Shown here: in pieces, positions 61,158-61,188 of the stretch
How the letters are laid out: each line of letters starts with the position of its first letter
Numbering within the stretch: position 1 is the stretch's first letter
NCBI GenBank assembly: GCA_948934525.1
Contig: CAQZSK010000001.1
Coordinates: forward strand, 96,453-160,452
Origin: an uncultured Clostridia bacterium
GTDB taxonomy: Bacteria; Bacillota; Clostridia; TANB77; CAG-508
DNA length: 64,000 nucleotides
Direction: 5' to 3'
The notes under the pieces: model-generated
Seen by the model: only the letters and a program-made list of their open reading frames with translations
Told to the model about the DNA's origin: nothing
The model's database searches: none
Translations under genes and position numbers: made by a program

Positions 61158-61188
61158 TGTGTGTGTGTGTGTGTGTGTGTGTGTGTGT
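61158..61188. repeat. Dinucleotide microsatellite (TG/GT)15 in the intergenic region between the holin gene and the downstream phage gene
   Basis: tgtgtgtgtgtgtgtgtgtgtgtgtgtgtgtgt read directly at 61158-61188. Exceptional in an AT-rich genome. Confidence 0.95.

Follow-up and report, generated by a model that had tools for sequence, protein, structure and literature searches.

An anchored dinucleotide tract in the leader reading frame of a prophage tail-fibre-tip gene: a candidate phase switch in gut Clostridia and their phages

The stretch of DNA analysed here, referred to as the window, comprises 64,000 nucleotides (nt) from an uncultured Clostridia bacterium (contig CAQZSK010000001.1, positions 96,453 to 160,452). 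It contains a prophage whose genes follow each other on the minus strand in the order tail genes, holin, repeat tract, gene A, gene B, Amidase_3 endolysin, and the repeat tract is the subject of this report. Tandem Repeats Finder describes it as a perfect 31-nt (TG)15.5 at 61158..61188 (period 2, 15.5 copies, 100% matches, zero indels); it reads (AC)15A on the coding, that is minus, strand and (TG)15T on the plus strand. The runner-up among the dinucleotide repeats of the 64-kb window is a (TA)5 of 10 nt, and a first-order Markov model gives an expectation of about 4e-15 such tracts per window. The tract is thus, as in a contingency locus, a long perfect repeat far above chance. A preliminary description had noted a perfect TG tract of 30 to 31 nt between the holin gene and the first of two small genes, about 80 nt upstream of the start of the latter. 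We confirm this: the ATG of gene A lies 77 nt downstream of the tract on the minus strand, and the holin stop codon lies 27 nt upstream of it.

The tract had been taken to be intergenic. It lies instead inside a leader open reading frame (ORF) of 49 codons at the present repeat number (61077..61226, minus strand), so that any switch would work through reading frame and not through spacer length. The unit of 2 nt, not a multiple of three, is sited within this frame, again as in contingency loci. The leader ATG (61226) overlaps the end of the holin gene (61216..61578, minus strand, 120 aa, Pfam Phage_holin_4_1, E = 3.8e-24), sharing its last three codons and stop. It is preceded, at a distance of 9 nt, by a Shine-Dalgarno (SD) motif read from the sequence, GAGG at 61236..61239 (minus strand), and an SD precedes the leader ATG in most of the related modules whose flanks were listed. 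The predicted product is MKNRMRRITLEAV(HT)5SVSKKWSKGGSREQLEVSILPREDLI*, in which the tract encodes (His-Thr)5 and is followed by 26 further codons. Directly 5' of the tract lies a conserved motif, AACCCTTGAGGCTGT (61189..61203, minus strand), which we call the anchor; the window holds one perfect copy of it, compared with 0.02 expected. The same leader layout is shared by 45 viral loci and many genome loci. The leader peptide is not on record as a called gene, and Rfam has no family at the locus.

What follows the tract depends on the frame in which it is left. In the present frame, the leader TGA (61077..61079) shares an ATGA with the ATG of gene A (61078..61080), so that the leader stop overlaps the gene A start. 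With one unit fewer (or two more), translation would end 8 nt past the tract at a TAA (61147..61149, minus strand); with one unit more (or two fewer), it would end at a TAG (61112..61114, minus strand) placed in the loop of a hairpin. Changes of three units restore the read-through frame. In the hairpin (61094..61133, minus strand), a loop of 21 nt separates two arms: the 5' arm GGAGGAAGTA (61124..61133), which is SD-like, and the 3' arm TACTTCCTC (61094..61102), which is anti-SD-like, with GGAGGAAGUA in the SD-like arm and UACUUCCUC complementary to it; the predicted folding energy is -16.3 kcal/mol. In modules resembling that of the window, the arms are conserved and the loops differ. Several of these features recall the pil1 leader of Streptococcus gallolyticus, to which we return at the end: a repeat in a short leader with its own ribosome-binding site, a stable stem-loop between repeat and controlled gene, and alternative leader stops, of which one falls 8 nt after the tract, one within the loop and one 14 nt beyond the 3' arm. 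The terminator of pil1 has no counterpart in the window, where the hairpin lacks a T-run and no terminator-like site was detected on the minus strand.

Gene A (60733..61080, minus strand, 115 aa) and its neighbours had been considered part of a lysis cassette. Its relatives are tail proteins. It matches only the extreme C-terminal parts of PHROG tail-fibre and virion families (E down to 7e-9), together with a match below threshold to Pfam Gp53-like_C (E = 0.0048). An exhaustive HMMER search collected 56 relatives, found as small stand-alone proteins, as tandem arrays, or as C-terminal ends of long proteins. A word-indexed protein search returned gene A's own copy alone, back-translated patterns revealed no relatives in species-representative genomes or viral contigs, and the DNA of 59500..62300 had no match among 50,697 deposited phage genomes. 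An AlphaFold (AF2) model built from 28 relatives is all-beta, with a predicted local distance difference test score (pLDDT) of 92.2; among solved structures it comes closest to two tail fibres, that of the R2 pyocin (6ct8, E = 7.6e-5) and AP22 gp53 (4mtm, E = 1.9e-3), and 89 predicted viral structures, mostly annotated as tail fibre, match it at E <= 1e-3. From the PHROG, HMMER and structural matches we therefore conclude that gene A, as modelled, is a stand-alone gp53-like C-terminal tail-fibre-tip (receptor-binding) domain. The genes under control would be such domains, and not the lysis-cassette genes first proposed. Upstream of the gene A ATG, no SD of the GGAGG type is present.

We consider it probable that the tract is a phase switch for gene A, in which slipped-strand mispairing changes the frame of the leader. 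Transcripts of the phage's late operon would reach the locus by way of the holin gene. Ribosomes would start at the leader ATG and translate the anchor and (AC)n, with an outcome set by tract length modulo three. At 31 nt, or at lengths differing by three units (31 +/- 6k nt), the leader would be open, and the ribosome would melt the hairpin and terminate on the start of gene A; the SD-poor gene would then be translated through termination-reinitiation at the ATGA, which is the ON state. One unit more would place the stop in the hairpin loop and one unit fewer 8 nt past the tract; in both cases the hairpin would stay closed and gene A would be OFF or low. Gene B, which is also devoid of an SD, may follow gene A. 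Slipped-strand mispairing at replication would alter the number of units, and a lysogen or phage population would then be a mixture of members making or not making the stand-alone receptor-binding tip. We infer that these frame changes alter expression and thereby host range or adsorption. Because the hairpin has no T-run, the leader and gene A overlap at ATGA, and gene A lacks an SD, control at the window copy is probably translational (reinitiation or unmasking) and not transcriptional, the reinitiation detail being held with lower confidence than the leader-frame switch.

An assembly artefact had been named as a way in which the tract might be explained away. Contigs of SRR10593855 and SRR26637619 that are 100% identical to the window end inside the same (CA)n, at the same junction, and a third contig picks up 41 nt past the tract. 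As these independent short-read contigs enter the same (CA)n at the same junction, an artefact of this assembly is excluded, and the tract is genuine. The Logan contigs in question (L001, L002 and L190, from SRR10593855 / SRR26637619) are assemblies of the prophage broken at the tract, with a gap that amounts to the tract plus 41 nt. More generally, k-mer assemblies systematically lose or mis-phase loci that bear such tracts. A metagenome search with the exact flanks gave 0 matches, leaving no other spanning sequence for the exact prophage.

If the tract is a substrate for slipped-strand mispairing, as initially suggested, its length should differ among related modules, and the comparison of lengths proposed at the same time showed that it does. 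At loci with flanks at least 90% identical, tract lengths were 22, 22, 22, 28, 28, 30, 32, 34, 34 and 36 nt in one set, 20, 32, 32 and 34 in another, and 24, 30 and 30, 23 and 29, or 17 and 25 in smaller sets, with others showing the same polymorphism. Independent gut metagenomes yielded window-like modules whose flanks are essentially the same, and their tract lengths were 25, 25, 27, 29, 29 and 33 nt for one type, and 16, 18, 22, 26, 34 and 36 nt for another. Lengths in related modules thus spread over ranges such as 22-36 nt and 16-36 nt. All three frames occur, and the window-like modules realise all three outcomes, namely the stop 8 nt past the tract, the stop in the loop, and the ATGA overlap. 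Since lengths differ between near-identical flanks, the tract is hypermutable in these modules, and the sequences support its behaviour as a slipped-strand hotspot.

The module extends well beyond this prophage. In a related phage, L007, an (AC)16 lies between two fibre genes behind the same left flank, CTTG(T/A)GGCTGT. The pattern GGCTGT(AC)>=7 matched 56 viral contigs and, among species-representative genomes, at least 120 stretches, nearly all of them from uncultured gut Clostridia of humans, rabbits and ruminants; among the matches listed, bacterial genomes often have 3 to 5 copies each. The view that such a tract is almost never seen in low-GC bacterial DNA is therefore wrong for this lineage. 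An open search for long (AC)n in viral contigs matched at least 120 stretches, and among the matches listed higher-GC and giant-virus DNA dominated; it added two further flank variants. The common layout consists of an SD, an ATG, 9 to 13 codons, the anchor, a tract of 14 to 73 nt, and a spacer, and the leader ORF was present in every module examined, viral and bacterial.

The anchor consensus over 98 non-redundant flanks is AA[G/C]CCTTGnGGCTGT. Its conservation is at the nucleotide level: two unforced A's are found in 98/98 and 95/98 flanks, synonymous positions are conserved (Leu is always CTT, and AGC/ACC is used despite a background of 30% GC), and the motif also persists where the leader runs through it in another frame and encodes (TH)n, as in 14 of 98. 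Three explanations were weighed for this conservation: a mini-hairpin, a frameshift stimulator resembling an SD, and homology for recombination. The mini-hairpin, AGCC-TTGn-GGCT, is weak, position -13 being a C, hence a mismatch, in 41/98 flanks, and it was rejected. A frameshift stimulator would belong with a reading in which the tract acts in translation or transcription, through 2-nt slippage of the ribosome on (CAC ACA)n, so that a fixed fraction of products would appear in each frame whatever the genotype. Perfect re-pairing of the tRNA after a slip of +/-2 would be intrinsic to a dinucleotide repeat; moreover, in almost every copy a GAGG, GGGG or GTGG stands 5 to 8 nt ahead of the repeat's first codon, an SD-like GnGG of this kind could stimulate slippage, and such a signal would fit the nucleotide-level conservation of the anchor. 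We nevertheless judge slippage to be improbable. Length differences in the DNA of near-identical modules are sufficient for switching, no evidence for slippage was obtained, and the variants with another repeat unit, described next, keep GGCTGTA, one of them (L309) being without CCTTG.

These variants carry (AG)n in place of (AC)n behind the same GGCTGTA. One is (AG)11, in the metagenome locus L309, which is homologous to L317 as far as the anchor; the other is (AG)14, in L321 (IMGVR_UViG_3300005461_001058), where anchor and tract are followed by a hairpin identical to that of the window, with the read-through frame. As (AG)n is found in homologous modules, the Z-DNA potential emphasised in the preliminary description is not needed. 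The property that matters seems, from these sequences, to be a dinucleotide that shifts the frame, and not Z-DNA or a CA-specific property of the RNA. The same variants bear on control at a promoter, where tract length would alter the -35/-10 spacing or promoter supercoiling; the (TA)n of Haemophilus influenzae hif is a promoter-spacer switch of this sort. Alternating purine-pyrimidine (TG)n can form Z-DNA and the TTGAGG of the anchor resembles a -35 box, yet the (AG)n variants cannot adopt Z-DNA, a promoter scan of the coding strand gave nothing promoter-like near the tract, and tracts of 14 to 73 nt cannot fit a spacer of 16 to 19 nt. Such control would also ignore the conserved leader ORF and the frame rule set out below. 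We regard it as largely refuted, its remaining probability being very close to nil.

The leader-frame switch makes a demand on the sequence between tract and controlled gene, which was analysed in the 45 viral loci after grouping them into 21 subfamilies at 70% spacer identity. In 20 of the 21, exactly one post-tract frame carries the leader stop to positions +1 to +20 of the downstream start, with tight ATGA or TAATG overlaps in 12 of these 20; the other two frames stop early. The frequency of this design around 266 other gene starts in the same contigs was 0.48 for short spacers and 0.31 for long ones, a generous null because phage genes often overlap. Binomial tests against it give P = 3e-4 (short) and P = 2e-4 (long), values that are optimistic, as the subfamilies are related by evolution. 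The read-through frame is the one found in 17 of the 45 viral loci, the window included, which is about one third.

The starts of the controlled phage genes are also occluded. The start region of controlled genes had a minimum free energy of -12.0 kcal/mol, that of other starts one of -4.1 kcal/mol (P = 4e-12); pairing of the SD was 0.70 compared to 0.39 (P = 2e-6). In short-spacer families the SD pairs with codons 2 to 4, an anti-SD being placed after the ATG, and this anti-SD is retained under differing N-terminal peptides. Covariation in the SD/anti-SD hairpin of these families was limited to one compensatory pair. N-termini beginning 'MIP...' (ATG ATA CCT C, with ATACCTC as the anti-SD) recur on unrelated fibre-tip proteins, in L014, L019, L021, L025, L030, L137 and others. 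As ATACCTC pairs with the gene's own SD, the conservation of this peptide probably reflects a constraint on RNA structure.

In the bacterial genomes, where layouts were scored over 85 loci, the principle recurs in two further arrangements. At 20 of them, one frame fuses the leader to a long ORF, and in 12 of these 20 a hydrophobic segment of the KGITLIALV... type follows at most 45 nt past the tract. Because the Pfam N_methyl match of these genes is below threshold, we term the products pilin-like and not pilins. At 47 of the 85 loci, a strong hairpin with a T-run is located 40 to 100 nt past the tract, with a pilin-like gene beyond it in 24 of the 47. Among 37 non-redundant loci of this terminator type, at least one frame enters the hairpin in all, and exactly one in 33; the other two frames stop within 25 nt in 31 of the 37, compared with 0.34 for a shuffled-spacer null (P = 9e-10). 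The genomes of the L070-L189 series (for example L081, L095, L131, L157 and L162) contain surface-protein genes in multiple copies, whose products have a pilin-like N-terminus, KGITLIALV(I/V)T(I/V)VVLLIL, and which are preceded by or fused to an anchored (AC)n leader. The CALXEW01 metagenome-assembled genome has at least 5 copies, and Clostridium sp. CAG:389 has one tract of 73 nt. With this gene family, commensals appear to have multi-locus phase variation mediated by repeats. Phage leaders are similar to the N-termini of the bacterial genes (...(HT)n DNLKTNGG compared to ...(HT)n DNLENKGITLIAL), and this resemblance suggests that the phage and bacterial cassettes share descent.

The same resemblance could be turned into an argument for a function of the (His-Thr)n leader as a small protein in its own right, such as a metal-binding one or the remnant of a secretion or prepilin-like signal, in which the repeat is a tolerated, expandable linker. 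A [ST]-L-x-A-V-(HT)n motif is encoded in 77 of the 98 flanks, and the tract is in frame with a long ORF at the 20 bacterial loci just mentioned, 12 of them with KGITLIALV. This is very improbable, in our opinion: in roughly two natural copies out of three the frame cuts the peptide off immediately behind the tract, the 14 leaders with the motif in another frame encode (TH)n, the (AG)n variants encode (RE)n, and synonymous sites are conserved.

Behind gene A, gene B (60332..60703, minus strand, 123 aa) encodes a second small fibre-tip-like protein, with a PHROG match to a minor-tail C-terminus. The two small genes had been called paralogous. They are indeed alike over their first 15 or so residues, but show no likeness beyond these. 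Among genes directly behind a module, the one controlled in L059 shares 41% identity with gene B, and those of L019, L039 and L076 are likewise homologous to it. The endolysin gene follows (59564..60335, minus strand, Amidase_3, Pfam E = 2.9e-20); its canonical ATG at 60335 shares an ATGA with the stop of gene B, and it has its own SD, a GAGG 8 nt before this ATG. With an SD of its own for the endolysin, lysis need not be phase-variable. The suggestion that the tract varies the expression of the downstream genes may thus stand for the first small gene, for which the position of the tract fits ON/OFF control, and not for the endolysin, which has its own SD and is frameshifted.

In nine related phages, the endolysin gene comes directly after the holin gene, and the module with its two tip genes therefore looks like an insertion between them. 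This appearance favours a reading in which the module is mainly a recombination linker: the anchor (15 to 20 nt) and the repeat would provide 35 to 55 bp of shared sequence for swapping receptor-binding cassettes, and length variation would be a by-product. The same leader flank is joined to non-homologous genes in L019/L039/L059 and L022/L025/L056/L057, and likewise in L016/L023/L034 and L049/L051/L058/L061, and conservation of the anchor across synonymous sites and frames is what a role at the DNA level predicts. The recombination hotspot of the preliminary description is in this sense possible, indirectly suggested by the shared flanks with non-homologous cargo, although no recombination breakpoint has been mapped to the tract. 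As the main function, a linker is unlikely, since it leaves unexplained the leader SD and ATG, the rule of one open frame in 20 of 21 subfamilies, the occluded starts and the design of the bacterial terminators. It may coexist with the leader-frame switch.

Two genes near the tract are interrupted. The endolysin start (MKILLIAGHGAGDP..., ATG 60335) is out of frame with the remainder of the Amidase_3 ORF, owing to a 1-nt frameshift near 60293; a one-base deletion near 60293-60294 would restore an endolysin of 256 aa. The same sequence is present in the independent Illumina contig L190, so the frameshift is real, and the gene is either a pseudogene or subject to recoding. Upstream of the holin gene, an apparent frameshift near 61770 divides a tail-associated gene (61597..62272, minus strand) into two overlapping ORFs, of 200 aa and 57 aa, and contigs from two other read sets have the identical sequence. 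The two frameshifts together suggest that the prophage is decaying. One might then take the tract for a neutral, selfish microsatellite, devoid of function in a possibly defective prophage with its frameshifted endolysin and split tail gene. However, a chance origin is excluded, and the module is conserved over 98 non-redundant flanks with a non-random design of frame and structure, so that we give neutrality hardly any credence. At most, the window copy would be a recently disabled member of the module family.

Several points weigh against the leader-frame switch, as proposed for the window or for its relatives. Given the frameshifts in the endolysin and tail genes, the switch at the window copy may be a relic in a decaying element. 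The length variation seen is that of related modules, the window being the sole spanning sequence of the exact prophage; the short-read contigs broken at the tract are compatible with length heterogeneity, and equally with poor coverage. A weak GUGA sits 9 nt before the gene A ATG and could permit some constitutive initiation. The window hairpin shows no covariation, its arms being invariant or carrying disruptive changes only in relatives, and the 191-nt region as a whole folds no better than shuffled sequences (z = -0.66). A strong SD precedes the downstream gene of short-spacer families, so that the OFF state may leak there. To these are added the relatedness of the subfamilies, already mentioned, and the nucleotide-level conservation of the anchor, for which the switch does not account.

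A broader proposal, which we put forward tentatively and regard as somewhat doubtful, is that the leader start, the anchor of about 15 nt, the dinucleotide tract and the frame-sensitive hairpin form a portable phase-variation cassette shared by uncultured gut Clostridia of small genome size and their phages. Its bacterial role would be to control multiple pilin-like surface proteins in each genome, by attenuation or by in-gene frameshift; in the phages it would control receptor-binding tips by reinitiation, and might also serve as a junction for tip exchange. Tandem modules occur about 1.2 to 2.7 kb apart, each ahead of its own gene, in L312 (26-49 and 1205-1228), L143, L145 and L162; they suggest combinatorial switching of several tips or surface proteins. 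We found no description of an anchored dinucleotide leader module in the open-access literature, which is not proof of absence. What had been described as a rare intergenic microsatellite is, in place of this, a structured, widespread and apparently undescribed switch module.

Other features of the window were recorded. Two CRISPR-like arrays, at 46297..48059 and 56635..58125, have repeats of about 30 nt (CTTAAAATTCTAATATATTTACATTAAAAC and CTTTAAATTCTAATATATTTAAATTATAAT) with a spacing of 64 to 67 nt. Large ORFs occupy 48230..56115 between them and are probably cas genes; the block adjoins the prophage end. An Rfam RT-14 RNA match at 15650..15790 on the plus strand (69.9 bits, E = 1.6e-7) adjoins an ORF of 2082 aa on the opposite strand (15797..22045, minus).

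Repeat-mediated phase variation is a textbook matter for a few pathogens; in phages it is a recent finding that concerns only homopolymers inside genes. If our reading is true, a compact signature would predict, for many gut phages, that receptor-binding proteins switch stochastically, and the same signature would predict switching of pilin-like surface proteins in abundant uncultured gut Clostridia. If the cassette is shared in the way proposed above, an identical stochastic device would operate in host and virus, at either side of the adsorption interface, and the commensals would represent multi-locus repeat-mediated phase variation outside pathogens. The module would bear on the question, raised in a 2025 review, whether multi-locus phase variation is restricted to pathogens (PMC11868660). 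In mechanism, the phage module would be a translational version, with stop-start overlap and hairpin, of the leader-peptide attenuation known from one Streptococcus. There is also a practical side: short-read assemblies break at such tracts and consensus sequences hide ON/OFF states, and host-range predictions and gene calls are therefore unreliable there.

The closest proven mechanism, by analogy, is that of S. gallolyticus pil1/pil3, where experiments have shown that a (GCAGA)n repeat within the ORF of a leader peptide determines if the ribosome gets as far as a premature terminator (Danne et al. 2014, PMC3894217). There, as here, a non-triplet repeat lies in a short leader ORF with a ribosome-binding site, a stem-loop precedes genes for surface structures, and the repeat number places the leader stop relative to the stem-loop; in pil1, a ribosome that reaches the stem-loop gives the ON state. 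The bacterial copies described here match this design feature for feature, with leader, tract, terminator hairpin and pilin-like gene. The likeness is one of architecture, sequence homology having been neither sought nor seen. The differences are the unit (GCAGA there, AC or AG here), the conserved anchor of 15 to 20 nt, the window hairpin devoid of a T-run and the ATGA overlap with an SD-less gene, the proportion of expressed frames (two of three high there, one in three ON here), and the location on a phage with receptor-binding tips as cargo.

Slipped-strand switching in phages themselves has been reported for Campylobacter phages, in which polyG tracts switch receptor-binding proteins (Sorensen et al., as cited in PMC11868660), and for the homopolymer contingency loci of T2 and T4 (bioRxiv 10.1101/2025.10.21.683753). 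The latter preprint surveyed only homopolymers of at least 6 nt, and found simple sequence repeats to be under-represented in tail fibres (bioRxiv 10.1101/2025.10.21.683753). In these phages and in the present case, a slipped-strand repeat yields, or would yield, subpopulations that differ in a structural or host-interaction protein, a form of bet-hedging. The known examples are homopolymers inside the affected gene, whereas here a dinucleotide lies in a separate upstream leader, with coupling and a hairpin, in phages of Clostridia.

The opa genes of Neisseria carry CTCTT repeats in the region coding for the signal peptide. They resemble the fused bacterial layout in that the repeat is in the N-terminal, presumably removed leader of a surface protein, its length only switches the frame, and the genes are multi-copy. 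Their phase variation is mentioned in PMC3745409. The unit, the phylum and the protein family are different, and the window copy is not fused to its target. The ermC and cat leader peptides, MS2-type coupling and reinitiation at ATGA provide models for the other half of the mechanism, as in these an upstream ribosome opens a structure or reinitiates at an overlapping start. The ribosome of the upstream ORF would likewise unmask the downstream initiation region here, but drug-induced stalling or constitutive coupling would be replaced by a heritable, reversible change of frame in a DNA repeat. Finally, the invertible tail-fibre segments of Mu Gin and P1 Cin and the diversity-generating retroelement of Bordetella phage BPP-1 vary the receptor-binding end. 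They share with the proposed switch a stochastic variation of this end of the fibre within a phage population. They achieve it by inversion or mutagenic retrohoming, whereas no invertase, inverted repeats or reverse transcriptase were seen at this locus, where the change of a dinucleotide repeat would take their place.

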